A stretch of 64,000 bases of DNA from a virus. Position 1 is the first letter of the stretch. The number at the start of each line of letters is the position of its first letter. The stretch spans positions 32,001 to 96,000 of IMG/VR virus record IMGVR_UViG_3300028025_003409; one strand, 5' to 3'. Shown here piece after piece: positions 23,179-63,118 of the stretch. Both the position numbers and the translations under genes were made by a program. The notes below the pieces were generated by a model. That model saw only the letters and a program-made list of their open reading frames with translations, was not told the DNA's origin and made no database searches.

Positions 23179-24473
23179 TTATTTATCTCTTTTCTGTAGT
23201 GCATGAGCAGGGGTTGATTGTTATTTGTTTTCCTTTTTGTGTAACTACCGCTAGGGTGTTACATGATGAGCATAGGTATAGGTGCATTAGAATTCACTTT
23301 CCTTATCTAGCATGGTGGGGACTAGTACAATTATAGTGCATAGCACTGACAAAACTAGGATGATAATAGGTAGGCTCATTAGATACACTCCTCACATGGG
23401 CATTGTGGGAATTCTGCATCTTGCTTAATGCGATTAGCAAGGGCAATAACCTTTTTATAGGTATCGGCAGACGCACCCCTAAAGGATACTACCTTACCCT
23501 CGGCTACTAATTGAGCAGCCTTATTTATTTTTTGTTCTAGTGTTAATGTAGTCATTTGATGACCACCTTTCTTTTTAATGCGATATCTATTTGATACCTT
23601 TTTCCTTGACCTAGGTTATTTGCTCTTATTTGCTACGCTCACCCGATAATCGGTTTATTTGGTAGGCTCAGAGGCTCACTAGGATTTTTCTTTATTTAAT
23701 TTTTCTTACTATGTAAGTCTAGCAAAAAATCTAATAAATATCAACTTACTAGCCAGTATTCTCATATAATGAGACGCTTGGGCTATGTGATTTAGGTCAC
23801 TTATTTGCTAGGCTCATATAACTTTTTGTTATCTTATTTGCTAGGCTCATAACCTTTTATCTCTATTTAATTTTTCTTATACTAGTATAATAACACATCT
23901 ACCCCTAAAAGTCAAGTCCTAGCACGGCGTGTCGTGTGTGATATGCGTCACATGGGGACGTGCATGATCTACCCCCTATACAGGTACCCCCTATCTAGGA
24001 CGTGCCCTGTGGATAACCTGTGTATAACTATAGTGGTATACATCACATGTGTGCTACATCACAATGTCCAATTTATACCTTTTATACCCTCGTAAATGTC
24101 AGACCCCCCTGTTATACTTACTAGTATAAAGAAAGTCAGAAAAGGTTTCTGAACTAGAAAGGACAATAAAATGTCAAACAGTATTTTCGGTCAAGGTTTC
24201 GCTAAGGTTAGCGATTACCCTAAAGGTCTAATGAACCTCTGCCCTTGTGGGCAGGTAGTCTTAGCACCTGCTAAGTATCACGCAGGTCAGCCTTGGTGGG
24301 ATAACCCCAACAAGTGTAAAGAATTATTCGAAGGAGTAAAATAAATGAACTTAGATGAATACAAGCAAATGATAGAGGCTCAACGCCTCACCTCTTTAGC
24401 AATAGCGTTAGACGCTCTACGCAAATCCAATGCCATAATGGAAAACACTTTCAATTTAGAGGAGAATGAATAA

Positions 24474-24740
24474 ATGAAAACACTTCAAGAAAAATTAGAC
24501 CTTGCTGCAAAAGCAGTTGAGCCAGTTTTAGCAGAATTGCTAAATGAGGTTGATGAAAAAACCGACTATGAATTAGAACAAGAATTGCAAGAGCAATTTG
24601 ATGAATACATAAATGATTCGCATGACCCAGTAATGATTGCAGGAATTTTATTTTATCCTGCTGACATTCTAAAAGAATGCGACCCAATCGCTTATCGTGT
24701 TTTTCTAAATGATTTTGAATCGTATTTAGAAAACGAATAA
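24474..24740 (+). CDS. Small acidic early protein
   Basis: FDEYIND...ILKECDPIAYR; very acidic; AGGAG RBS. Confidence 0.7.
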   Translation: MKTLQEKLDLAAKAVEPVLAELLNEVDEKTDYELEQELQEQFDEYINDSHDPVMIAGILFYPADILKECDPIAYRVFLNDFESYLENE

Positions 24741-25230
24741 ATAAAAACCAAGATCGCAGAAATAAAACTCTGCGATTTTTTGGGACGTCCCGTGTGATGC
24801 GAATCACATTCAAAATACGGCGTGTCGTCTTGACTTTTTGAGATTTCTCTGCTATACTTCTAGTATAAAGAAAATTGAGAAAGGTTCTCAAATTGAAAGG
24901 AGTCCAAATGGACTATAACGAATACTATGATGAAATTTATCTAGAAATCTATGAGGAGTTTGGCGCTGAAAGCGTATCAGACCCAGCCTACGCTGAATCT
25001 CTAAAAAAGTGATGTAAATCACACAACGCCTACGGCGTGTCGCCTTGACTTTTCAGGGTATGTGTGATAGTCTTACTACATAAGAAAAACTAAATAAAGG
25101 ACAAATTGGCTAATGAGCCTAAGCAAATAAATGTGATACAAATCACAGTGAGCCTTAGCGAATAAGTAGCCGAAATGTCAGCCCCCAATGGTAAGATAGT
25201 CTTATCAAACAAACGAAAGGAAGTCTAAAA

Positions 25231-25428
25231 ATGACTTACACTATAACACTAGAAACCTTTTCAGGTTCTACAAAAAAAATCAACCTTGCCTCTAAGGGTG
25301 CGGTTGCTCAATTCATCTCAACTTATCCAACTCAACTACCTGTTGGCGTTGCTGTAAAAATCGCTTGCGATACCCTCGGAATTAGTGGCACACTTCGTGG
25401 CACTTCTACACTTACAAAATCAAACTAA
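25231..25428 (+). CDS. Early hypothetical protein
   Basis: GAAAGGA RBS downstream of the 25176 promoter. Confidence 0.65.
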   Translation: MTYTITLETFSGSTKKINLASKGAVAQFISTYPTQLPVGVAVKIACDTLGISGTLRGTSTLTKSN

Positions 25429-25447
25429 AGAATAGGAAATAAAATAA

Positions 25448-25654
25448 ATGACTAAAGTAGAACACTCTCTAAAGTTCGTAACCGAGTTCGATGAAACTCA
25501 CCCAGTAGCACTACAAGCACTATCTATCCCTCACTCAGATTTGGTTGCTATGCTTGAAGGAATGCTAAAAGATTTGCTAGTGCCTGCCCTCGGTCCTGTA
25601 CTTGATGAAATAAATGCTCGTGGCACTTATGCAATTCTAAAGGTGGCCGAGTAA
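25448..25654 (+). CDS. Early hypothetical protein
   Basis: 68 aa ORF coupled to the next ORF (MMTRKDY... 25654-25833). Confidence 0.65.
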   Translation: MTKVEHSLKFVTEFDETHPVALQALSIPHSDLVAMLEGMLKDLLVPALGPVLDEINARGTYAILKVAE

Positions 25655-25839
25655 TGATGACACGCAAGGACTATGTTGCAACTGCTGAAATTCTTTCATC
25701 ATTCAAAGATTTGATAGGTGATGAATTTACTTTTCACGACTTAGTTGATGAATTTGGTTCAATGTTTGAAGCAGATAATCCAAGATTTGATTCAACTAAA
25801 TTTTTTGAAGCGTGTAACAAAGACACTTACTAAATAAAA

Positions 25840-25867
25840 AAATCCTGAGCAAGATTTAAAACTGCTC
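25840..25867 (+). ncRNA. H-type pseudoknot element, copy 1 of 6
   Basis: AAATC-CT-GAGCA-A-GATTT-AAAAC-TGCTC; other copies at 30648, 31286, 31825, 33073 (+) and 43631-43606 (-), with covarying stem 1. Confidence 0.7.
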
Positions 25868-26359
25868 CACACTCAAAATTTTGGGACGTCGCGTTCGGGC
25901 GTGTCGTCCACATGACGCAGATCACATTCAGAATTGAGCGTGAGTTATCCACATGACCTACATCACATTTCAAAATGTCCGATTTGTGGCATTACTGGTC
26001 AGTAGATGTCAGACCCCCCTGCTATACTTACTAGTATAAAGAAAGTCAATCAAGGTGATTGAACTAGAAAGGAATTCAAATGAATTCAACAATTATCAAG
26101 TGTGTAGAACACACACCCTTCAAGTCTGCTATCTCAGAGGTTGCAGATACACAATTTACTTTTTGTGAAATTTGTGAAAATAACATTGAGCGTTGGTATA
26201 ACGATACCGACCCTGAGCGTCTACCAATGTGGACAGATTGGAAGGTATCTAAATGATAGACTTCGTAAAACAATTAGAATTAGAAAACTATCTTGCAGAC
26301 GAGCAAGTAGACCCACTAGCAAAAATGCTAGATGAACTAATAAAGAAAGGAGAATACAA

Positions 26360-26596
26360 ATGAGTCTATCCCTTGCTAATAAAATCGCAAAAGATAAATT
26401 CTTTCTGCCCCCTTCAAAATACATAAACCACAAAGTCGTGGAGATTGTATCTTTAAATGAGGATAGCGGTATCGCTACTGTAATCCTAGAAAAATACACA
26501 ATAGGCAGAAATGCTAATGTGTATAAAAATAATAATGTGTTCACAATTGAATTGCCTTATTCCGAATTTCAAAATCTAAATGGTTGGAGTGAATAA
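26360..26596 (+). CDS. Early hypothetical protein
   Basis: AAGGAG RBS. Confidence 0.6.
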   Translation: MSLSLANKIAKDKFFLPPSKYINHKVVEIVSLNEDSGIATVILEKYTIGRNANVYKNNNVFTIELPYSEFQNLNGWSE

Positions 26597-27239
26597 ATGA
26601 GTACCTATGTACCAATTAAATCTGTATGTGGTGCAGTAACTACCACAATTGACATCTATGACATTGAGTTAAATCCTCACGGAGTAATCTGTTGCGATAA
26701 CTGCAAGTCAATCATTCTATGCCGTAAGGCTTGGGATTTTCTATACAAGGAGAATAAGTAATGCCACTATTTGAATTTACAACATTTATAAATGTTGAAG
26801 CAGAAGACTATGACTCTGCTATTGCTATGTTTGACTCTAATTTAGAGTATGGTGGAATTCGCAGAAGCGATGTTTATGTCGCAGAAATTGAGGAAAAGTA
26901 AAATGAGTTTTTATCAAACCTTTTTTGAAAGTGGCAACGCATTGTTTTGGTTTTCAATGATCTGCTTAGCAAGTGGATTTTATTTATTTGTAAAAGAGTA
27001 GAAAAACGGGACGTCGCGTTCGGGCGTGTCGCCACGCTGTGAGATTTATCACATGGCTTGAGCGTCTCAGTATTTGGACTTACTGGCTAGTAACTTGATA
27101 ATTTGTGAGTAATAGGCTAGACTTACATAGTAAGTAAAAATAAATAAAAGAAAGTCTATCCCACTACGGCGTGTCTAACCGAAAATGTCAGACCCCTATG
27201 GTAGGATAGAATTATCAACAAAAAGAAAGAGGTTGGCAA

Positions 27240-27446
27240 ATGTCAGCAAATGTCTATACAATAGAACACCTACTTGTAGGAACACAATACCGCTCACGAA
27301 CACTATCGGGAGAAATTATCTCAGCAGAGAAACACCCTAACGCAGTTTGGTATCAGGGTTGCGAAAGTTATCTAGTGGAAGTGCGCCCTAGTAATTTTGG
27401 AAAAGTCGTATGTCGCACAGTAGCAGTAAAGGTAGAAAATAACTAA
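27240..27446 (+). CDS. Early hypothetical protein
   Basis: GAGG RBS after the 27186 promoter. Confidence 0.65.
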   Translation: MSANVYTIEHLLVGTQYRSRTLSGEIISAEKHPNAVWYQGCESYLVEVRPSNFGKVVCRTVAVKVENN

Positions 27447-27719
27447 TGGGATACATAGAGATTTTTAGAATTGACAATGAGGGTGCAGGTTGGATAGACT
27501 TGGACAATGCAACACCTAGCGAATTGCTAGACCTAGAAATTGGCTTATTTCAGGAAGGGGCTATCTAATGGGAGTAATGAAAGAATTGCACTTAGAGATA
27601 ACTACTTGCGACCTATGCTATGGCACAGGTTGGCTATACTTTGGCAATAGCGAGGACTTTGATACAGAGTCTTGCGATTGTAACCCACACCAACTATTTA
27701 TAACTAAGGAGAATAACTA

Positions 27720-27938
27720 ATGAACGAATACCTATACTCAGTAACAACAACTAATGACGGAGAGGCTAAGCCGAATTGGATTGGTCGCTACTCAGACGCA
27801 CTAAGTGCCGTTGAAGTTTATCAGAGATTTATTGACCACGGATTTGCTAACGAATTCCGTACAGTAAATTTATCAGAGCCTAGTGGCAAAATGCATACAA
27901 AAATTTTGTATCGCAGTGGAATTGTGGGAGGTAAGTAA
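27720..27938 (+). CDS. Early hypothetical protein
   Basis: AAGGAG RBS. Confidence 0.65.
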   Translation: MNEYLYSVTTTNDGEAKPNWIGRYSDALSAVEVYQRFIDHGFANEFRTVNLSEPSGKMHTKILYRSGIVGGK

Positions 27939-28099
27939 ATGGACATAACTACTTTTGCAAAAGGAATGAGCAAGATTGCTCCGAATTATGGCATAGGGTA
28001 TGATAACTATGGTCAGGTTATTATTTATACTAACCTAAAAGAAACTGAAAATAATCAGTATGCAGAAATGTCAGATAACGATTTTGAGGAGAATAAATA

Positions 28100-28387
28100 A
28101 TGGGATCAGTTACAGCAATTGGATTAGCGGATAGCGTATTGGATTTAGAAACTCAATTGGCGTATCACTTACAGGGTAATCACTATCCACCCGTACCACT
28201 TTCTATGGTTCAGCCTTGCATAGAAGCAATTGACGCATACTATGATGAGGACTATGACCGATTTATTGCTATGCCTGAAGGCGTATTCTATAAGGGAATG
28301 AGCCACGCACCTGCCCACGCAATTGTAGACCAACACCACTTGTCTTGGTTTATTGACCCAGTAGACGAATTTGAAGATGAGGAATAA
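28100..28387 (+). CDS. Early acidic hypothetical protein
   Basis: GAGGAG RBS; HLQGNHYPPVP motif. Confidence 0.7.
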   Translation: MGSVTAIGLADSVLDLETQLAYHLQGNHYPPVPLSMVQPCIEAIDAYYDEDYDRFIAMPEGVFYKGMSHAPAHAIVDQHHLSWFIDPVDEFEDEE

Positions 28388-28388
28388 A

Positions 28389-28631
28389 ATGAATGCTACA
28401 ATGAGCGACATGGAACTAATCGAGGCAGATACACTTGCACCAGACCAACTAATGATTGGTGATTTAATAAAAGTAAACAATGACATTCTTGAAGTTATTT
28501 TTATTGAAAGTGATTCTACTGGAGATAACTACGATGTACAAGTAAAAAATGAATTTGATGAATTAGAAATAATTCAATTTGCTTATACTGATTCTATTCC
28601 ATTGTATGTTTTTATTGACTACGATGAATAA
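28389..28631 (+). CDS. Early acidic hypothetical protein
   Basis: GAGGA RBS before ATG 28389; LxxGDxI motif. Confidence 0.6.
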   Translation: MNATMSDMELIEADTLAPDQLMIGDLIKVNNDILEVIFIESDSTGDNYDVQVKNEFDELEIIQFAYTDSIPLYVFIDYDE

Positions 28632-29166
28632 GTAAAACTATTTTTATGCACTTCCCCGCATAAAAATGGGACGTCCCGCAGTCGGGCGTGTCTGTGTATA
28701 TCCTGTGGATAACTATGTGCTACTCATGAGTAACCCTTTAAATATTTCTTTAAGATAGTTTATTTTATTTTCCCCGATTCTGGGCAAAATTTTTTGTGAT
28801 TTTTATCACACGATCAGGATTTGACATTTTTATGATATGTGTGTTAGTATTGTTATATGAAAAAAACAAATGAGGAACTCCGCAGGCTTATGGAACTACG
28901 CCGTAGCAACGCTGCCTCTGCCGTGCCTTCTAAAAGGGCTTACAATCGAAAGAAATGTCAGTCCGAACTGTTACAATATAAATATCAACAAAAAGGAGAA
29001 TAGCCCATGACCTACGAAAACGATGAAATGCTAGATGAATACTATGCAACTGTATGCCCCTCATGCAAAGAAAATGCGGTAGACGCATATGAAGATAAAT
29101 GCACTCATTGCTTACTAGAAGAAATGTCTGTCCACTATAACGAAGACATTGCTCTAGAAATGAGTC

Positions 29167-29907
29167 TTGGCCTTGACTACTGATACACTTAAACTTAAAC
29201 GCTCTAATGATAGAAAGGTGGCTAATCTTGTCACAAAAAATGGAAAGCAAGCCGCAATCGCAAATACCTTTGGACTACCTGCTGGAAAGGCTTTCTCGTG
29301 CCCTGGTGCCACTAGCGTATGTGAAAGCGTGTGCTATGCAGGAAAACTCGAAAAACTCTTCAAAGGCGTAAAGGCTAACCTCTTACACAATTGGACCTTA
29401 CTTAAGGACGCCGATCAATTAACTATGGAGACACTGTTAACTGAAATGATTAACGATTTCCGTGCAGACTGTGTAAAGAAAGACGCCCCTATGCTATTCC
29501 GTATCCATTGGGACGGAGATTTCTTTAATGATATATACACTCATGCATGGAAGAATGTAATCAATAACAATCCTGATATTCAATTCTGGGTATATACCCG
29601 TGTTAAGTCTGCTGCACTTATACTTAAGGATGTATCTAATCTATCATTGTACTTCTCTGCAGATAGTGAGAATGTAAAAACCGCCGTTGACTTAAAAATT
29701 AATAGTGGCGTACGTATGGCATACCTTGCTAAGAACTTTGCTATTGGTCAAGCCGATGTAAAAGAAATGATAGGCAGACCTGCTGCTAAGTGTCCTGAGA
29801 ATAATAAACAAATTCCACTTATCTCAACTAACGGTAGCGCTTGCGTTTCATGCTCACTTTGTGTATACTCTAAGAGTGATATCATATTCTCTGCGAGTAA
29901 AAAATAA
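29167..29907 (+). CDS. Mycobacteriophage Gp88-like (radical-SAM-related) protein
   Basis: FGLPAG..SCPGAT..C...CYA; FRIHWDGDFF; FWVYTR; C-terminal CxxCxxC. Confidence 0.75.
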   Translation: MALTTDTLKLKRSNDRKVANLVTKNGKQAAIANTFGLPAGKAFSCPGATSVCESVCYAGKLEKLFKGVKANLLHNWTLLKDADQLTMETLLTEMINDFRADCVKKDAPMLFRIHWDGDFFNDIYTHAWKNVINNNPDIQFWVYTRVKSAALILKDVSNLSLYFSADSENVKTAVDLKINSGVRMAYLAKNFAIGQADVKEMIGRPAAKCPENNKQIPLISTNGSACVSCSLCVYSKSDIIFSASKK

Positions 29908-30709
29908 ATGAGCACTGCATTCTATTTTTGGATAATGCTAATACTACTAATAAGTTTATTAGGTGGTGGTGGTTGGTGATGATCCCCTGAAAAATGGGGA
30001 CGTCGCAAAATCTTTGATTTGTCAAATTACGACACGCATAAAAAATGTGGGGTTTATCACACTAGAAAATGTCATTTGGATTAGGATTTATGACATTTTT
30101 ATGCTAAAATTATACTATAAGCAAAACCCCCACAACAGAAAGGCAAGACCCAAATGACACTAGGCGGATACACTTACCAAATTGGTGATTTATTCACAAC
30201 CAGCAAAACAGGCATTACGGGACGCATTAGCGATTTCACCCCTGTCAATGCTAAACTAACTAGAGTTTCATTACGCTTGGCAAACGGCGCACACCGATTT
30301 GCTATGGTAAAGACCTCTAAGTAATCTCAAAATGTGAGAAAATGTCGAAATGGATTTGACATTTCTACAAGCAAAATGTTATACTTAGGTATAACCAAAT
30401 AACAACCCCTAACAGAAAAGAGAAAAAACAAATGGCAGTAAATACAGCAACATACAAGGTCGGCGATACTTTCACGACACAGAAGTCAAAGGTTAGCGGA
30501 GTAATCACAGAGATTACACCACAGGCTAACGGAAATGTCCGAGTAAAGTTAGATGTAGATGGCAAGCCACGCTACACAACTTGGACGGCTAAGTAATCTA
30601 ATTACTAAGTGTCGGGCGTACAGGCACTATAAATAAGGGGCGAGAACGAACCTGAGCAAGTTCCAAAAAGGCTCAACACCCCCACTAACAGAAAAGGAAA
30701 CAAAAACAA

Positions 30710-31132
30710 ATGGCAAGAGGCAAAGCAATCTCAGTAAAAATCCCTACTCAACGAGTAATCACCGCACTAGAGTCTGCACTAGCAAAACTAGAGTCAGACT
30801 ACGCATCACAAGAACAAAAGGAAGCACAGTACCAACTTCTATACAAGGCTTGGCAGAAAGAGTTAGCAGATTTCGCTATTGCTAATTTCTCAAAGGCTGA
30901 GAACATTAGAACAAACTTCCGTTCTTGGAACAAGACCCTCAACATTGACTTCGACATTATTGGTAGCGAAAGCAATTTCCCTGCTGAACCTGAGAAGCAA
31001 CACGAAACTATCCATCAGCACACTTATCGTGAGCAAAAAGAGGAAATGCAAAATGCAATTCGTATCCTCAAAATGACAGATGAGGAAGTTGTAAATACTT
31101 CCACATACAATGCGGTTGCTCGCTATCTCTAA
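30710..31132 (+). CDS. Early hypothetical protein
   Basis: AAAGGA RBS; helical 140 aa ORF. Confidence 0.7.
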   Translation: MARGKAISVKIPTQRVITALESALAKLESDYASQEQKEAQYQLLYKAWQKELADFAIANFSKAENIRTNFRSWNKTLNIDFDIIGSESNFPAEPEKQHETIHQHTYREQKEEMQNAIRILKMTDEEVVNTSTYNAVARYL

Positions 31133-31386
31133 GTGAGATTGGGTGGGGTGTAAAAGCCCCACTCATTATCCCCTGAGTTCCACGCTATTTATAGCAAGTG
31201 TCCCCTGGGGATCCTTCGCCAGGCTGATTAGGGCGATAACAGAAATACTATAGAGCCAGTTCACACCAACTGCAAGAAGTGTAACTACCTGAGTAAGTAT
31301 CAAAACTGCTCCCCGCAAGGGTCCTTGACAAATGTCAGTGGTCTCGTGTACAATTAAATTAAACAAACTAACAGAAAGAGGCCCCC

Positions 31387-31806
31387 ATGGACCAAACAAC
31401 AAACACAGTAGTGAATGCCACAGAAGACTTTCTTCGTGACTCACTAGCCAAAGCAACATTGCGTGTTACAGAATTAGAGGAGCACATCTCTAAGGTTACG
31501 CAGCGCTCATATGCAGAGTCTGCAGATAAGAATCGTATCGTTGAAGCAATGCAAGAGTGGACCCTTGGGGCCCTTGAGCACGGCACCATTGATGAATCAG
31601 ATGCAGAAGAAATTGCAGACATCTGTGGATTTGAACTAACGAAAGAATTCGAAGTTGAAGTCACAGTCATGTATTCGGTTACCGTAAATGCTCGCACTGA
31701 AGAGGATGCACAGAATGCAATTCATGATATTGATTTTGATACTGTAGACTACAATTCAGATTCAATTTCATATCTATCATCCTCAATTGATAGAGTTGAC
31801 ATTTAG
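31387..31806 (+). CDS. Early acidic hypothetical protein
   Basis: GAGG RBS after the 31333 promoter. Confidence 0.7.
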   Translation: MDQTTNTVVNATEDFLRDSLAKATLRVTELEEHISKVTQRSYAESADKNRIVEAMQEWTLGALEHGTIDESDAEEIADICGFELTKEFEVEVTVMYSVTVNARTEEDAQNAIHDIDFDTVDYNSDSISYLSSSIDRVDI

Positions 31807-32042
31807 TAGGGGGCTACTAACAAAAGACCTGAGCATGTCTGTACGTAAACTGCTCATTTTTAAAATCCCTCAAAATTTGGGACGTCCCGCCGACCAGTCA
31901 TTGTCAAATCGACACGCCGTTTACGAAGGGTGATCTTTGCCACAATGTTCGATTTATCCACATCTAACTATCCCGATTTGCATATGTCAGTCAGTCCTGC
32001 TATACTTAGAATTCAACAACAAAAAGAAAGAAGGAAAAACCT

Positions 32043-33065
32043 ATGGCACATGACCTAGAAACTCAAAACGGAAAAACATCTTTTGCGTCTTTCCGTGAAC
32101 CTGCTTGGCATGGATTGGGTACCGTATTCACAGAAGAGAAAACAACCGCAGAAATGCTAGAGGCTGCAAACCTCAATGGTTGGAATGTTCGTCTTGAGGA
32201 TTTGGAAACCCCTACACATCTAACAAGCGACAAGGCGTACCAATATGTCTTGCGTACAAATCCTACCGACAACACACAAACCGATATTCTTGGTGTAGTT
32301 GGTGAGCGATACCATGTTTTGCAGAATGAAGATTTATTCTCATTCGGTGATAACATTCTTGACGGCGGAGGTCGTTGGGAGACTGCTGGCTCAATCAAGG
32401 GTGGTCGTGTCGTGTTCGGTGCATTAGCACTAGAGCGTGAAACAATTCTTGACCCTAATGGTGTTGCAGACAAGGTAAAAACTTATTTGCTCATCAACAC
32501 ATCACATGATGGCTCAATCGCTATTCAAGCAAGCATTACACCCGTTCGTGTCGTGTGCGCTAACACTCTCAATCTTGCGCTTGGTGGCGTAGGTCGTAAG
32601 AAGAATAAGGGTATCAAGCAATCTTTCAAGATTCGCCATACACAAACTGCAAATGGTAAAGTGCAAGTTGCTCGTGAGACTCTTGGTCTTGCTAATGCAT
32701 ACATGAACGAATTCGATATCATGGCTAAGGCAATGATTGAGAAAGAAGTTTCTGCTAAGCAATTCAACGACATCATTCTTGCTGCTTACGCTAAGCCTGA
32801 AAAGGATTCTAAGGGTTCACTAAAGAAGTGGGAAAATAAAGTTGATGTTATCAACGATATTTACACTGGTGAATTCAATGGAATGATTGCGGGTAATGCG
32901 TGGGGTGCTTTCAATGCACTAACCGAACGCCTTGACTGGTATCGTTCTGCTCGTGGTGGTTCTAACGAATCTATCCTTGCAAGCGCAAGCGGATTTGACC
33001 CTGCTATCAACGCAGAAAAAAATCGCTTACTAAAAGTTGTGCAGAATGTAATGTCTCTCGCATAA
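32043..33065 (+). CDS. DUF932/DUF945 (TIGR03299-like) protein
   Basis: PAWHGLG; LGVVGERY..LQNE; ETAGSIKGG; NTSHDGS; PVRVVCANTL. Confidence 0.85.
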   Translation: MAHDLETQNGKTSFASFREPAWHGLGTVFTEEKTTAEMLEAANLNGWNVRLEDLETPTHLTSDKAYQYVLRTNPTDNTQTDILGVVGERYHVLQNEDLFSFGDNILDGGGRWETAGSIKGGRVVFGALALERETILDPNGVADKVKTYLLINTSHDGSIAIQASITPVRVVCANTLNLALGGVGRKKNKGIKQSFKIRHTQTANGKVQVARETLGLANAYMNEFDIMAKAMIEKEVSAKQFNDIILAAYAKPEKDSKGSLKKWENKVDVINDIYTGEFNGMIAGNAWGAFNALTERLDWYRSARGGSNESILASASGFDPAINAEKNRLLKVVQNVMSLA

Positions 33066-33106
33066 TAAAAAAATTCCTGAGCAAGAATAAAAACTGCTCA
33101 CCATTT

Positions 33107-33180
33107 GGTCCGTTAGAATAGTTGGTTAGTTCGCCACCCTGTCACGGTGGAGGTCATGGGTTCAAGTCCCATACGGATCG
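33107..33180 (+). tRNA. tRNA-Asp(GTC)
   Basis: Acceptor GGTCCGT/ACGGATC; anticodon arm CCACC-CTGTCAC-GGTGG; GGTTCAAGTC T-loop. Confidence 0.92.
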
Positions 33181-33371
33181 CAAGTAAATAAATATGCAAC
33201 GCAATGTATAAAAATTTGGGACGTCCCCTGTGACTTACATCACATGAGATTTTTAACTAAATAACTTTACGATAGGGTGATATTTTCCCCAAAAATTCTT
33301 TACGATAGATTTGACTTTTTCCCCAAACCATGCGATAATTAATATATAACCCACTAAAAAAGGAAAACCCC

Positions 33372-33797
33372 ATGAGAGACAGATCAAAAGGATATATCGG
33401 TCAAATCGTTGACGGTAAAAAGTTAGCCACAATTGCAAATAATATCTATCGCCTACAGTATAGTAATGACTTTAGTGAGTGTACTGTAGATAATCTACTG
33501 TTCATTACCCTCGAAGAAACCAATGTCTTTGGAGACAACAAGTACGCCTTGGTTTGTTCAGAAGGAGTGGGCTGGGAGCAAGATACTTATGGATGTCTAG
33601 AAGTACCAACTAACATTGGCCAAATGGGTCTATGGAATGGAAGAGTATTTATATCAGTAGATACCGTTAAGGAATGTCTAACAGATCAAACAGAAGACAT
33701 TGCAGACTATGTCCGTGTCTTTGGAGACAGACTAGATAGGAACTGTTCCCTGTGGCAGTCCAAGATGTCAGTGCCTAGTGCTATGATAAATGCATGA
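33372..33797 (+). CDS. Hypothetical protein
   Basis: TTGACT promoter and AAGGA RBS upstream. Confidence 0.65.
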   Translation: MRDRSKGYIGQIVDGKKLATIANNIYRLQYSNDFSECTVDNLLFITLEETNVFGDNKYALVCSEGVGWEQDTYGCLEVPTNIGQMGLWNGRVFISVDTVKECLTDQTEDIADYVRVFGDRLDRNCSLWQSKMSVPSAMINA

Positions 33798-34097
33798 ACA
33801 CAATAAATGACCTTATAAACGAAATCTATGACGACAACTTCTCTCACCTTGAGTTTGAGGAGAATATGGGCGGTATCGATTGTGACTGCCATATCCACAC
33901 TACACTAAACACTATTGCTAAGTATGCAGGGATTGAGGTAGGATAATGTTAGGCTATACTGAAACTGATATTGCAGTAATGACAGATGCTATGGAAGACG
34001 CTATCAAATCAGGTAGGCTCTCTGATGAGATAACAGATGGTTTGGAGAAGGCTATGTCTTTCTTTGATGGCCTATGGGCAGAAGGGTATTTTGACTA

Positions 34098-36676
34098 ATG
34101 AAAGTTAGAATCAGTCTTGAACAAACCATTGATATAGATGATGCTATGTCTAATGATATAGGGTTTGAACTCTATGGTCCCCCTGACATGAGCACTGAAG
34201 ATAAAGTAGATTATCTAATGGCTCGCTTTGCTGAGGACATAGACACTATGGTAAAGTATGATGAAGTATTGGGTAACATCTCAGTAGAATACATAGAGGA
34301 CTAATATGTGGAGTAGGTATACCTTTGTTTGTGATCCTGATGAGTGTGATGCCCTGGTTGAGTTTACTGCTAGGGATGACTTTGGATTTCCCCTGGGAGT
34401 TGTCGAAATGAGATGCCCTTGTGGTAGGATGTTAAACTATATTAGTTATGAAGAAGCCTATCAACCGATCATTACAGATGTGAGCAAGGTCACACCCCGT
34501 ACAGTTGTCAAAATCGACTCGAACCCGTATAATTAATATATGAATACAATTATAGAATATATGAAGTTACACCTGCTCAGTCTTGAACAAGACTCTGCTC
34601 ACCTTGAAAAGCAAATGGATGCTTATTCTAACTATGAGGATGATGACTACCGTATGCTAGAGATTGAAGATATCTCTACTAATGGTCAGATTATCGCTAC
34701 CGCCCACCTTTTGTCAGTGGCTCAGGGTATGATAGAGTAATGGAAACAACACAACTAGAGCCAAGACTGCAAAGACTCATTGACCTAGGAGAGTCAGGCA
34801 CTGACATACTCCATGGTGAACTCAAGAACTTAATGCTTGAGGCCGAAAAGGAATTCCTTGAGGCACAACAGATTGAAGAAGACAACGACTACTCAGACGC
34901 TATGGAGTCTATGGAGCGTAAGTACTGGGAAGGCCAGTGCGACGCATTAGCCCATGTCTATGCATTAACTTATCAACTAGCATTTGCTCTCAGTGACAGG
35001 ATAAAGAACAATGGATAAGTTTATCGAAATGGACTTTGACGAGTGGTGTGAGACCTACAAGCCAATCGTTAATCATATAGATACAAATGCCTCATTTGAC
35101 AATGGCGAGGGTGGCATTATGTTTGAGACCTACGGCGACGAGGTTGAGTTTGTAAAGCAGCAAGACGCTAATAAGATATGGATGTATGGGGACGGAGACG
35201 ACGGTGGAAGTTATATCTGGTCTGGTTGGGGCTTTGTTAATAGGCTTGGTTATTTTATCACTGATAAACCTTGCCCAGATAATGTGACCATTCAGGTACG
35301 AGTTAGTTACAATTGGTTCTACTGTGAAAACTGTGGGGCTGAGTTTGAAGACCCTGATAATACTATCAGAGATAAGTTTGATGAGGCCGATTTGGAAAAA
35401 TGCCCAAATTGTGCTACACTTGAAGAAATGACCCAAATAGAAAAAGGAGACCCAATGAAAGAAAATGAGCAAGTAGACGAAGTACTAGTAGACCCTGAAC
35501 TGCTAAAAGATGTTTGGTTTGATTTAGGCAAGGACGGTAAGTAATGTCAACATACAAAGTAGAAGTAATCTTTGAGCCAACAGGCGACTACATGAATTTT
35601 AGATACGAGGCGGAATCAGACAATGAAGAGGACCTCTGCAGAGAAGTATTAAACCAACTATCAATTGTATCTTGGAAGGATGAAGAGTAATGGGAGCACG
35701 GATTAACTACGTATTCAAAGACAGTGAGCAGGGCCCTATGGTTGCTCTATACAGCCATTGGGGTGAGACTGAGTGGCAGCGGGACCTAGCAATGGCGCTG
35801 CAGCATGCAAAACCCCGCTGGCAAGATTCTGCATATGGTACACGGATGATCATTAGTTATCTTATGCAAGACAGCATTCTAGAGGAGACAGGCTTTGGTA
35901 TTTACGCTATTAGCAATGACGGGTCCCTTGACCTAGGTGACCTTACAGTACTAGTCGACTTCACTACCAATACTGTTACTGATAGAGTTTCGGTACCGTT
36001 TGATAAATTCATGGATGCATATCTACCAGTTTTAGTTGAGCAGGCATAGATCTAGGGTCAGACTGTGCCTAAGGGTGGGGGTAAGCGTGGGGCTTGCCTC
36101 CCCCTAACTTTTGCGGTATAATGGAAGAGAGGAGGGACTATGGCGTATTCAGTAAGACGGAAAGCAGAGCATAACAAAGAGTCAAGAAAAGCAGAGCAGT
36201 TGGCAAAACTTCTTACAGAAGATTTCTCCATAGACCTAGAACGGGTTGGATACTATCTAGTAAGAAACATGCCCACAATCGTGTTTCATAGATTTGATGT
36301 TTTAGCCTTGACAGCACAAGAAGAGTATGATAAACTAATGGCAGAGATGAAGGGTAGACTATAAATGGATTTTGCAGATAAGGCTGGAGCGATTGGTCAG
36401 TTATGGATTGAGTTCCGTAATGATGAAGATTTCTCGGCATTCATGGATTACAACGACCTAGGTTGTCCAATGGCATACATGGTGGCAGAAGGTTTGATTA
36501 AAGAACTTACACCTATTGGTGAAGAGATGATTACTGAAACATTTAAGATGTTTCTAGAGTTAGTTAATGTTACAGAGGAAGAGATTGACTCTGTACTTCC
36601 AGATAAGAACCTTGGTTCTATCTTGGTCTTTGCTCACAATAAGAAGAAAAACTCAACACCAGACGAAGAAGAGTAA
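34098..36676 (+). CDS. Run of small, mostly acidic hypothetical ORFs (34098, 34306, 34540, 34740, 35011, 35690, 36140, 36365)
   Basis: Tightly packed or overlapping ORFs; 35011 carries a CxxC..CxxC zinc ribbon; 35690 has a YSHWG motif. Confidence 0.6.
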
Positions 36677-36739: not shown

Positions 36740-37700
36740 AAATCGGACATATCGGACAAACCTCTCAAACCTTATATTTCTAAAAATAAGATTACGAAGG
36801 GGTTTTTTCTTTTCCCCAATCATGGACAAACCATCTTTCTCAAAAAAAGATTACGTAGCACAAAAACCTTTCCCCATTCATGGCTTATACCATATCAAAC
36901 CTTGTTTGTCAAACCTTTATATTTGGTGTTATAATAAAGATATGAGTCCAAGACACTTTGCAAACTATGCAAAACAATATCCTAAACAATATCAGGCATT
37001 CTCCGATAACATGTGGAATAGTTTTGTAGGTATTACTCATACTATAGGTTTGGGTAGATTCTTTTCATTCACCCCCGAATTTTTAGCGCCCCCGCTCACC
37101 AAGGCATCTGGCGTTTTTGCTGAAGCAGATCTTGAAGCATTAGATCCCACCAAAATCGGGCGGGAATTAGGCAAGGTATACAATCAAACACTACCTGATA
37201 ACAAACCTCTATAGTATAAAACCCTCTATAGAATAGATTACGAACCCTTGATTATTTTTCCCAGAGTTTTAGAATATTATCCAAACCTTTATATAATTTT
37301 ATAAAGGTTTTCTTTATTTTCTGAGCAAATTCGAACAAATTTCATATGAATTTTATGGGCATATTCATGCATAGAAGGACTTGACAAACCATGGTTTTGC
37401 ATGTATAATGCCCAAACCTTACTATGGGAAAGAAGGTTTGACAATATCGGGAATATGTGGTAAGAAGGTTTGAAGGTTTGGGATATGGAGGTTTGGCCGT
37501 AAGAAGATTACGACGCCTTCTATAAAAGCGCTCTATCCTCCACTACTCTCCACTTTACTCCACTTCTAGACTATCTAATTAAATAATCAGTAACATTTAT
37601 CTGTGGATAAACCTGTGGATAACTATGATCAAAACCTTACAAACCAGACATTACGAACCTAACAATATATCTCCCAAACCTCACAACCTGTGGATAACTG
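36740..37700. repeat. Iteron-like CAAACC(T) and GATTACG repeats with DnaA boxes (origin candidate)
   Basis: About 11 CAAACC copies on +, 4 inverted copies at 37435-37495; GATTACG at 36790, 36849, 37236 and 37506; DnaA boxes at 37602, 37614 and 37689. Confidence 0.55.
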
Positions 37701-38119: not shown

Positions 38120-38341
38120 TACTCTATTATACTTGACATACCGTGCAAAATTGGATATACTTGAAGTATGACTAATCAAGAGATATCTGACCTATTAAAT
38201 AAAGAATCTTACAAGGTTTGGGACACTGCTAAAGTAATTAAGAACCAAGACTACCATGATGGACTGGTTAAGGGTTTGAAGATGGCTGCTCAGTTTGTTT
38301 CTAAACTTGACTAAACCCTCAACTTAAGGTATACTGGATAT

Positions 38342-38572
38342 ATGCAACTATTTATGAGCGAGTATGCCTCGTGGGTGCTCGCTGTCATTGGAGTCACAGG
38401 CATCTTCTTTGTTGGTCGTAAGACCATTTGGGGATGGTTCGTACTCCTATTCAACGAAGTTCTTTGGATAGCCTATGCCCTATATACAAACCAGTATGGC
38501 TTTATATTTAGCGCACTTGCCTATGCAGCAGTTTATCTTAAGTCATACCTACACTGGAGGCGTGAAGAGTGA
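38342..38572 (+). CDS. PnuC-like small membrane protein
   Basis: Three TM segments; K.IWGW...N..LW. Confidence 0.5.
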   Translation: MQLFMSEYASWVLAVIGVTGIFFVGRKTIWGWFVLLFNEVLWIAYALYTNQYGFIFSALAYAAVYLKSYLHWRREE

Positions 38573-39241: not shown

Positions 39242-39884
39242 GATTGCACAGATGGATTGGCGTAGCCTAGGTTACTGGCCTATCTGGAAAGATGGAAAGA
39301 AAGTGTGGGTGCCTAAGGATGATAAATCATTCGACAAAGACACAAAGAACTAAGATATGGCCTTTACGATGGATAGGAAATTTTCTTGGTGGCTATGCTG
39401 GTAATCATTTAGTTAAGTGTGTTAATATGGATGAGGATGAAGAGCATGGCCTTGCCTATAAGTACCACGCAAAAATGTGGAAGTATCTTAATAAGCCCTA
39501 TGAGTGGTGGGGAACATACTACACCATAGATATGGATGCTTGGAGAGAAGAGTTAGATCAGATGAAGTTAGACATGTCTGGCTCTGGTTGGGATGATTAT
39601 GATGAGTTTGGTAAGGCATATTGGGATAAAGAAACAGATAGCGAGTCGCAAGACTCGTAGGGTTGTTTAAGTATCTCTATTTTGCGCCGAACTTTAAAAA
39701 CTTGACATCCATCCGCCGAACCTGTATAATTGGTATATGAGTATAGACGAAATGATTTTGCGAGAAGAAATTGCAAGGGCTATTGAGGCTTTGCCCATTG
39801 AACCATCAAAAACAAATGCTTTGGGCATGCGTATTGCTGCTGCTCAAATAGCAAGGGGAGACGATAACTATATGACTAAAATGT

Positions 39885-46021: not shown

Positions 46022-46303
46022 CTAGTTCTCCATAGTCAAATACTTCCATGTATTTGCCCAATCATTTCTATTCTTATGCTTACTGAATTCTTTGGAGAGT
46101 TCTCCATTTTCTAAATAGATTCCTCCCCAAATTCCCCACTCTTTTTGAGATACCCCAACTGCAAAACAAGTTTTGGAGACTGGACATTGAGAACAGAGTT
46201 TGTCAATCGCTGGCCTTAGTAACTCATCTTCCTCATACTTGTCAAAGAATAGGTTAGTATCATATTCTAAGCAAGCAGCATCATCTTTCCAGTCATTCTT
46301 CAT
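46022..46303 (-). CDS. whiB: WhiB-family Fe-S transcription factor
   Basis: W...AAC...LFF...C..CPV...C...WGIWGG. Confidence 0.9.
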   Translation of the reverse strand: MKNDWKDDAACLEYDTNLFFDKYEEDELLRPAIDKLCSQCPVSKTCFAVGVSQKEWGIWGGIYLENGELSKEFSKHKNRNDWANTWKYLTMEN

Positions 46304-62386: not shown

Positions 62387-62578
62387 TTAAATCATTAGTC
62401 TGACTACATGGCAACACGGATCTCCACCGTCTTCCCACTCTTGTACTTCGTCTTCACCCATGAATTCATATCCACCATCATGTGTATTGCAGTATGGATC
62501 TGATATCCATCCTCTTTCAATACCGTTTCTTAGCCAGATACCAAATTCTGCGTCTTCTGTCTCGTCTTCTGTATGCAT
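62387..62578 (-). CDS. Small conserved acidic protein
   Basis: GIERGWISDPYCNTHDG...GDPCCHVVRL. Confidence 0.65.
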   Translation of the reverse strand: MHTEDETEDAEFGIWLRNGIERGWISDPYCNTHDGGYEFMGEDEVQEWEDGGDPCCHVVRLMI

Positions 62579-62593
62579 ATTTAAAGTATACTC

Positions 62594-63118
62594 CTAAAGA
62601 CTGACAATGTCAACTGGGCCCATACAGGATGGGTTAAATTTAATTGCAGCGTTTACTGCTTGTGCTACTCTGTTCCTTGCATTTTTTTGTTTGTCTGTTG
62701 CGTACAGAACTCCATAAGCGTACTCTGCTCCTGAGCCCATTGCAAGATATGGAAGTGTGTACTTAGATAAAGACATGTCAGCAGAACTATGCTCATAGAT
62801 TTCTCCACGAACCGCAATGATCAAACCAAGATCTCCATCTTTAGATGTGTCAACCCAGAACTCATTATAAAATTCTTTAAGTTCTTTAATAAACTTAGTT
62901 TGCATAAACTTGTCTGTGTCTTTAATATTAGGTGCTGTTGGCTTAAAGTTATAACGGATTCTTTCTCCGTCCATTGCCCCCGCATACCCAATAAGATATG
63001 GACCTATCTTCCAAACCTTTGGTGCATCAAGTGCTAAAATAGTTCCATCATCTGAAGCCCCACGGTCTCCAGCCATGTAGATCTTATCTTCATGTTTTAC
63101 TACGGCAATACAAGTCAT
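62594..63118 (-). CDS. Ntn-hydrolase, HslV/proteasome-beta-like peptidase
   Basis: M-T-C N-terminus after an AGAGGG RBS; AGDR; K; GYAG; AMGSG. Confidence 0.75.
   Translation of the reverse strand: MTCIAVVKHEDKIYMAGDRGASDDGTILALDAPKVWKIGPYLIGYAGAMDGERIRYNFKPTAPNIKDTDKFMQTKFIKELKEFYNEFWVDTSKDGDLGLIIAVRGEIYEHSSADMSLSKYTLPYLAMGSGAEYAYGVLYATDKQKNARNRVAQAVNAAIKFNPSCMGPVDIVSL

Follow-up and report, generated by a model that had tools for sequence, protein, structure and literature searches.

This study concerns bases 32001-96000 of IMG/VR virus record IMGVR_UViG_3300028025_003409 (109,057 bp in full), a stretch of 64,000 nucleotides that is called the window here and to which all positions refer. 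A block of small genes on the plus strand of this phage genome, at 19.3-41.5 kb of the window and between minus-strand structural and replication modules on the gene map, contains a recurrent bipartite element, TGTCAG-N10-TAnnnT. The first-pass annotation of this DNA had listed ten copies of the element and read them as DNA-damage promoters of the kind recognised by the actinobacterial activator PafBC. The sites are very probably real promoters with a selected PafBC-type −26 box. That they are genuine members of the PafBC class (the '−26 element', RecA-NDp or sigma-adaptation promoters), with the explanation built on this taken as a whole, is the reading towards which we lean with some reserve, and the PafBC of the host is the somewhat favoured candidate for the reader of the TGTCAG box.

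The TGTCAG-N10-TAnnnT element and its conservation

The window was scanned for the motif and compared with shuffled sequence, as the first-pass annotation had proposed. There were 14 exact matches, with 0.92 expected and a maximum of 4 in 100 shuffles. These are all the matches of the 109,057-bp genome, since the other 45 kb contain none, and the reversed pattern does not occur anywhere in the genome. The spacing N10 gives 14 matches and each other spacing from N6 to N19 gives 0-4; the 18 single-mismatch variants of TGTCAG together give 20 matches, mostly intragenic and on the wrong strand. All ten sites of the earlier listing were recovered at their positions, and four matches had been missed by it (62585 on the minus strand, 27241 on the plus strand, 24645 on the minus strand and 43461 on the plus strand). 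A check of all 14 matches agreed with the remark that none lies in the structural region. The matches, with those of the TGTCAG-N10 type designated class A, are as follows.

24097..24118, plus strand: predicted class A promoter, TGTCAG-N10-TATACT with a TGn extended −10; predicted driver of the cassette from 24171; boxes conserved in 13 distinct orthologues
25176..25197, plus strand: predicted class A promoter; predicted driver of the cassette from 25231; 30 orthologues; CRP-like palindrome upstream at 25132-25147
26007..26028, plus strand: predicted class A promoter, paralogue of the 24097 site (72-nt repeat); predicted driver of the cassette from 26080
27186..27207, plus strand: predicted class A promoter; predicted driver of the seven-gene cassette 27240-28631
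28956..28977, plus strand: predicted class A promoter; predicted driver of 29007-29183 and the GP88-family gene 29173-29907; 30 orthologues
31325..31354, plus strand: predicted hybrid promoter, TTGACA-aa-TGTCAG-N10-TACAAT, a consensus −35 (18-nt spacer) plus the −26 box; predicted driver of 31387-31806
31985..32006, plus strand: predicted class A promoter with TTTGCA at −35; predicted driver of the DUF932 gene 32043-33065
33766..33787, plus strand: predicted class A promoter within the 3' end of the preceding open reading frame (ORF); leaderless ATG at 33794, 7 nt past the −10
34712..34733, plus strand: predicted class A promoter within the 3' end of ORF 34540-34740; leaderless ATG at 34740, 7 nt past the −10
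62585..62613, minus strand: predicted hybrid promoter, TTGACA-t-TGTCAG-N10-TATACT; leaderless ATG at 62578, 7 nt past the −10; heads the tailoring-enzyme block
23330..23351, minus strand: doubtful class A match; motif not kept in three available orthologues
27241..27262, plus strand: chance match overlapping the start codon of ORF 27240
24645, minus strand, and 43461, plus strand: further exact matches, left ungraded as real or chance

Nine of the ten promoters first proposed, the plus-strand sites from 24097 to 34712, can be regarded as solid predictions, and the tenth, 23330-23351 on the minus strand, is the doubtful one. The earlier statement that the sites lie upstream of ORF starts holds for these nine, which are found 7-53 nt before an ATG, on the coding strand, with a ribosome-binding site (RBS) or a leaderless start; all nine also have a phylogenetic footprint. 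The sites occupy the 200-600-nt gaps that open each cassette, mostly 30-53 nt before RBS and ATG, and nine to eleven cassettes of tiny genes are predicted to be begun from such promoters. The cassettes consist of small ORFan genes and are closed by intrinsic terminators. At 33766, at 34712 and at 62585 on the minus strand the ATG follows exactly 7 nt after the site; the last of these is probably a real promoter. The match at 27241 was rejected as a promoter because it overlaps a start codon and, in 28 orthologues, its box and −10 show the variation of codon positions. A recognisable −35 is missing from seven of the nine plus-strand sites; perfect TTGACA was found at 31333 and at 62585 on the minus strand, and TTTGCA at 31985.

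Conservation was analysed in 80 related loci of lake phages. On the forward strand these loci contain 557 matches with the N10 spacing; control spacings give 12.7, and the reverse strand gives 37. Orthologue footprints give a conservation of at least 95% for TGTC-G and TA---T, with drift in the spacer and at the inner −10 positions; at the 31985 site, for example, 53 orthologues keep TGTC and G, with position 5 variable and the spacer free. Among the 18 single-base changes of the box only TGTCGG is enriched (47 vs 1.7). Thus G2, T3, C4 and G6 do not tolerate change and position 5 accepts A or G alone, giving TGTCRG, which points to a sequence-specific reader. Most sites of the phage family also have a TGn extended −10 (T 61%, G 71%) and an A-rich 5' flank, and the family logo has a weak TTGAAA-like bias at −35.

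The match to PafBC promoters and the host type

PafBC-dependent promoters (RecA-NDp, recA P1-type) occur in Mycobacterium and other Actinobacteria and are activated by 'sigma adaptation' (PMC8635444; PMC11804915; PMC6789036). The consensus, tGTCgg(N10)tA(N3)T, has a '−26 element' at −23 to −28 and a canonical −10 with no −35, and the two guanines of its GTC are read by R46 and R50 of PafB (PMC8635444). PafBC is active only with single-stranded DNA (ssDNA) and joins only RNA polymerase (RNAP) that is already at a PafBC promoter (PMC11804915). The phage sites share the 22-nt geometry of this consensus, the fixed N10 included; both groups have the bipartite TGTC(A/G)G-N10-TAnnnT, a strict GTC core and a −10 for the housekeeping sigma, and a recognisable −35 is missing from most phage sites too. 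The published R of TGTCRG is the sole box variant tolerated in the relatives, and the three leaderless-type ATGs located 7 nt past the −10 would place the box at −28 to −23 if the ATG is +1 (predicted starts). The two groups differ in that the phage sites front ORFan takeover-type genes of a phage that appears to be virulent, not repair genes; the phage box is nearly always TGTCAG rather than TGTCGG; most phage sites carry the TGn extended −10 and the A-rich 5' flank, and two keep a perfect −35; and the phage sites are assigned from sequence.

A phage-encoded WYL activator had been named as the alternative reader. Searches of the whole phage genome gave no WYL domain (Pfam WYL, six frames), no PafB homologue (tblastn, E<=10, with a PafB verified together with its PafC partner, from a Georgenia MAG (metagenome-assembled genome), against 7P5X and 6SJ9) and no PafB/C-like helix-turn-helix (HTH), the best hit to full-length and HTH profiles from 10 PafB/C sequences having an E of 0.17 with filters off. 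That alternative was accordingly dropped. No sigma factor was found in the phage genome (sigma70_r2 search) and no RNAP: the giant ORFs are tape measure, minor tail protein, DNA polymerase and terminase, and the 3183-aa ORF, considered as an RNAP, is the tape measure. Integrase and resolvase genes were also not found in the genome. The uncultured phage is probably virulent (lytic) and must rely on the RNAP of its host.

The host can be approached through several features. The phage has a GC content of ~37%. It carries a WhiB-family gene (46022..46303, minus strand), a marker of an actinobacterial host, and DUF932 and GP88 genes, which are typical of actinophages; its numerous leaderless genes are also counted among the signs of an actinobacterial host. 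The nearest cellular relatives of its ribonucleotide reductase (RNR) are actinobacterial (Georgenia and Ruaniaceae, 57%). Most RNR matches are phage contigs that had been wrongly binned with MAGs of many phyla, Lake Mendota MAGs among them; because of these matches and 430 related contigs in IMG/VR, the phage can be placed in an abundant freshwater phage family and is not a mycobacteriophage. M. smegmatis, in which reporter experiments had been suggested, is not the host of this 37% GC lake phage, which belongs to another actinobacterium. Among cultured phages its nearest kin infect Streptomyces and Rhodococcus and have genomes of ~130 kb (DUF932 50-52%, WhiB ~40%); megablast against cultured phages gave no match. 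The 'direct terminal repeat' of the record is only a 102-bp assembly overlap.

Three routes to a more exact host were given up. RNR homology was rejected for the mis-binning just described, and WhiB identity is uninformative at 30-40% everywhere. GC content was dropped in view of phage Grayson. The Rhodococcus host of Grayson is rich in GC (~62%). Grayson itself (L153, MH153812.1, 85-132 kb), a large actinophage, has only 41% GC, so a low phage GC is no evidence of a low-GC host in this phage group.

PafBC was looked for in sampled Actinomycetota genomes as candidate host types. One of them, the unpublished genome G028, is counted only as a single row of the tallies, and none of the claims depends on it. 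A PafB-like ORF was present in 30 of the 31 genomes, including all the streamlined ones of 0.9-1.9 Mb. In the complete genome G012 (1.22 Mb, ~43% GC) PafB and PafC lie side by side and match the chains of 7P5X, and the GTC-reading arginines (R46/R50) are kept as 'RMFERDK'; the form 'R(M/A)FERDK' is kept in the candidate host-type genomes G012, G020, G022, G002 and G004. The sole WYL ORF of G001 was rejected as PafBC, being a Helicase_C_3+WYL protein.

Small regulons with the motif were described in G012, G019, G020, G022 and G007 (loci L108-L141; ~1.2-1.6 Mb, 40-53% GC), genomes that keep PafB/PafC, and the matches stand where those of a damage regulon would be expected. The motif is upstream of recA in 3/3 assessable small-genome loci (G019, G022 and, as cGTCAG, G012). 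It also precedes dnaB in two small genomes, a DnaQ-like exonuclease gene (GIY-YIG present or absent) in two, and an operon of a small ORF and NlpC/P60 in three. In mycobacteria recA, dnaB and an Rv2191-like exonuclease are likewise LexA-independent damage genes. Many host sites of the small genomes are leaderless and most have TGTCAG like the phage; larger high-GC actinobacterial genomes have a motif excess of 10-30-fold, mostly TGTCGG. The sub-motifs TGTCRG-ACCC and TGTCRG-TGG are common to host and phage sites, and host sites such as ctaGTAAATGTCAGACC closely resemble the phage site at 24097. As plausible hosts have PafBC together with the same motif at recA and dnaB, host PafBC is the most likely reader, at the reserved strength given above. 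The regulon of the small genomes also takes in a gene of the indoleamine-2,3-dioxygenase family.

Taken together, the geometry, the TGTCRG tolerance, the predicted box position at leaderless genes and the presence of PafBC and its motif in host-type genomes lend partial support to the PafBC interpretation first offered for these sites, in which early timing and PafBC dependence stay conjectural. What it had overlooked is a second class of promoters and the TGn extended −10, and the sampled cultured actinophages are without the motif.

So far, PafBC sigma adaptation is known only for DNA-damage genes on the chromosomes of a few actinobacteria in culture, and the literature search turned up no phage with promoters of the PafBC/RecA-NDp type. 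If the reading is right, it would be the first instance of sigma adaptation exploited by a virus, an activator-based counterpart of SOS-wired phage genes, and a natural link between PafBC and phage infection such as recent mycobacterial work has hinted at. PafBC and its motif are moreover seen to persist at recA and dnaB in streamlined freshwater actinobacteria of ~1 Mb. The phage sites offer compact, strong, damage-type promoters that are directly testable in the published M. smegmatis in vitro system.

Proposed mechanism and competing readings

The most economical model is that RNAP with sigmaA of the host reads the TAnnnT −10, strengthened at most sites by the TGn extended −10, and that a host PafB/PafC heterodimer loaded with ssDNA inserts between sigma region 4 and the DNA. 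PafBC would then read the GTC core of TGTCAG at −28 to −23 and so substitute for the missing −35 contact. Infection could itself supply the ssDNA, as DNA enters the cell, as nucleases attack the DNA of host or phage, or as intermediates of replication and recombination arise, and the cassettes would fire or be boosted exactly as the cell raises its DNA alarm. Because PafBC is active only with ssDNA, PafBC-dependent cassettes would follow some DNA processing event, whereas adjacent genes with canonical leaderless promoters would need no activator and could start first.

Several observations weigh against this explanation. The need for ssDNA is awkward for truly immediate-early genes (PMC11804915). 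The TGn extended −10 was not seen in ~15 host sites inspected by eye, and together with the weak −35-like bias it may allow the phage promoters to fire with no activator; two sites (31333 and 62585 on the minus strand) even have a perfect TTGACA. In five small genomes the crude motif has no genome-wide excess over the reversed control, so that motif support there comes from gene context only. TGTCRG-N10 sites are absent from five cultured actinophages whose hosts bear PafBC (Paradiddles, Coruscant, MeganTheeKilla, Adawi and Grayson), and 6/18 −10 sites of Paradiddles and 5/35 of Coruscant carry TGTCC(C/T) in the same register. The class B promoters described below could first express an unrecognised phage reader. 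PafBC dependence itself is deduced from sequence comparison; that PafBC is the reader, where the ssDNA comes from, when the cassettes are expressed and which host is infected are all parts of the model that we infer, and phage GC is no guide to the host.

The second class of promoters, class B, has canonical −35 and −10 hexamers. Eighteen sites score >=11/12, with 5.3 expected, and two are perfect. They lie mostly at 34.5-39.7 kb, several are leaderless, and their hexamers are conserved in relatives. A canonical −35 is found 16-18 nt before the −10 at class B sites, unlike at most class A sites. Sites of this class include the following.

34505..34533, plus strand: predicted class B promoter, TTGTCA-17-TATAAT; leaderless ATG at 34540; CRP-like palindrome just upstream at 34479-34494; both hexamers conserved in 26 orthologues
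36906..36935, plus strand: predicted class B promoter, TTGTCA-18-TATAAT; leaderless ATG at 36942
37381..37409, plus strand: predicted class B promoter, perfect TTGACA-17-TATAAT
38133..38161, plus strand: predicted class B promoter, TTGACA-17-TATACT; leaderless ATG at 38168
39702..39730, plus strand: predicted class B promoter, perfect TTGACA-17-TATAAT; leaderless ATG at 39737
30356..30385, plus strand: predicted class B promoter, TTGACA-18-TATACT, inside the class A zone; predicted driver of 30432-30596

The presence of two conserved promoter classes in one block would also fit a factor of the phage's own, of non-WYL type, that reads TGTCAG in the manner of T4 MotA/AsiA. A small class B product would redirect host RNAP-sigmaA to the −26 box, class B being immediate-early and class A delayed-early or middle. 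The class B products are mostly very acidic mini-proteins, the kind that bind sigma or RNAP; the box is placed like the T4 MotA box and replaces the −35 (comparison in PMC8635444); and the motif occurs in no other phages than this family, being absent from the sampled cultured relatives. However, no DNA-binding domain was detected in the class B genes (a basic Cys-rich 86-aa ORF has no informative look-alike), the HTH profiles gave nothing PafB/C-like even with filters off, and the agreement of the box, the A/G at position 5, the N10 and the flanking sub-motifs with host PafBC promoters would have to be a coincidence. We consider a phage factor unlikely. The middle promoters of T4, which work with AsiA and a MotA box at −30 ('sigma appropriation'), are alike in that a box downstream of the −35 position replaces the −35, a sigma70-type −10 of the host is kept, and the middle-type class coexists with ordinary early promoters. 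In contrast, both the reader, MotA, and the sigma remodeller, AsiA, are products of T4 itself, while here no candidate reader was found and the box equals the site of a host activator.

The Streptomyces phages suggest another reading. Paradiddles (L145, 13191-21113 scanned) and Coruscant (L146, 13669-19877 scanned), of the Stanwilliamsviridae, have a syntenic block in which numerous small genes carry individual promoters, and in roughly one third of the early promoters TGTC precedes the −10 by exactly 12 nt. In these two phages TGTCC(C/T) sits inside canonical TTGCnn-17/18-TAGACT (Paradiddles) or TAAGCT (Coruscant) promoters, decays freely (TGCCCT, AGCCCT) and is not accompanied by TGTCRG-N10 sites, which sets these promoters apart from those of the lake phage. 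To our knowledge this conserved register of TGTCC(C/T), exactly 10 nt ahead of the −10, in the early promoters of the two phages has not been described before. The TGTC core may therefore be inherited and not evolved for PafBC, and the freshwater lineage may have sharpened an ancestral TGTC into the strict TGTCRG box while losing the −35.

Carried further, this would make the sites activator-independent extended −10 promoters in which TGTCAG is an inherited spacer element that tunes sigmaA-RNAP binding or DNA shape, or is kept by repeated duplication, and the match to PafBC is convergent or incidental. The TGn on most sites and the weak TTGAAA-like −35 bias agree with it, as do the promoters being paralogous repeats, the hybrid sites with perfect TTGACA, and the TGTC of Paradiddles and Coruscant in identical register within canonical promoters. 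Descent alone is nevertheless insufficient to explain why, across diverged orthologues, the box exceeds every −35-like position in conservation, and the remaining spacer by a wide margin; the element decays freely in Streptomyces phages and here is intolerant of change except for A/G at position 5. An inherited spacer element thus seems rather improbable, somewhat more so than a phage factor.

It might also be asked whether the sites act mainly as a sink, titrating PafBC-RNAP from the damage or defence regulon of the host, or as the operator of a repressor. They are numerous (ten or more per genome copy) and strong and would be multiplied by replication, and a link between pafBC and resistance to mycobacteriophages has been reported (Rafique et al. 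2025, as cited in PMC12848934). Every solid site, however, is in promoter register on the coding strand, before an RBS or a leaderless ATG, and the box is not palindromic and keeps a rigid distance from the −10, as is usual for activator sites coupled to RNAP but not for operators. We regard this possibility as very unlikely as the main function; titration is compatible with PafBC activation and does not exclude it. Readings of the box as a reverse-strand −35 (CTGACA) or as a WhiA, LexA, sigma54 or extracytoplasmic function (ECF) sigma site were rejected on strand bias, register and spacing.

Returning to activation by host PafBC, a wider scheme can be put forward only tentatively: the family would have turned early −35/−10 promoters bearing TGTCCy into PafBC promoters, so that the ssDNA alarm of the host serves as trigger and timer of takeover or counter-defence cassettes, and the same sites, ten or more in each replicating genome, as a sink that starves the host PafBC damage and defence regulon. 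Coupling of a mobile element's expression to host DNA-damage sensing is shared with SOS (LexA)-wired phage genes and with DriD and other WYL-regulated promoters. LexA wiring differs in working by loss of a repressor, mostly in temperate phages, while here an activator site is found in an apparently virulent phage with no integrase; DriD sites differ in being palindromic and upstream of the −35.

Other elements of the small-gene block

An example of the terminators that close the cassettes is given here.

24753..24776, plus strand: predicted intrinsic terminator with a 9-bp stem and a T-run; GGGACGTCCC comes immediately after it

Palindromes of the form GGGACGTC(C/G), with an AatII-type GACGTC core, were found at 24782, 25883, 27008, 28668, 29997, 31879 and 33218, directly after terminator T-runs, and mark the cassette boundaries. 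A second group consists of seven perfect 16-nt TGTGA-N6-TCACA palindromes of CRP/GlxR type, at 23937, 24793, 25132, 27038, 28795, 33229 and 34479; with one mismatch allowed there are 14 sites, with 3.4 expected. All lie upstream of promoters, in gaps between genes of the small-gene block; two of them are centred at about −64.5 from the predicted start, and the half-sites of the one at 34479 are conserved in relatives.

The genes with leaderless canonical or hybrid promoters at 34540-36676 and at 62387-62578 (minus strand) encode extremely acidic mini-proteins; 35011-35544, for example, has 15 K/R and 42 D/E. Such proteins could be DNA mimics or could bind host proteins. A 76-aa ORF at 38342-38572 weakly resembles the N-terminal part of the PnuC/NMN-transporter family (E 3e-5, below the Pfam cut-off); it could be a mini membrane protein or only a fragment.

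Between the divergent units, ~540 nt at 23556-24096 contain no ORF. This stretch carries four copies of TCTTATTTGCTAGGCTCA, at 23624, 23653, 23799 and 23832, and a minus-strand sigma70-like promoter at 23915-23887. An Rfam search returned only tRNAs, with no match in this stretch, which could be a source of small RNA or an array of protein-binding sites.

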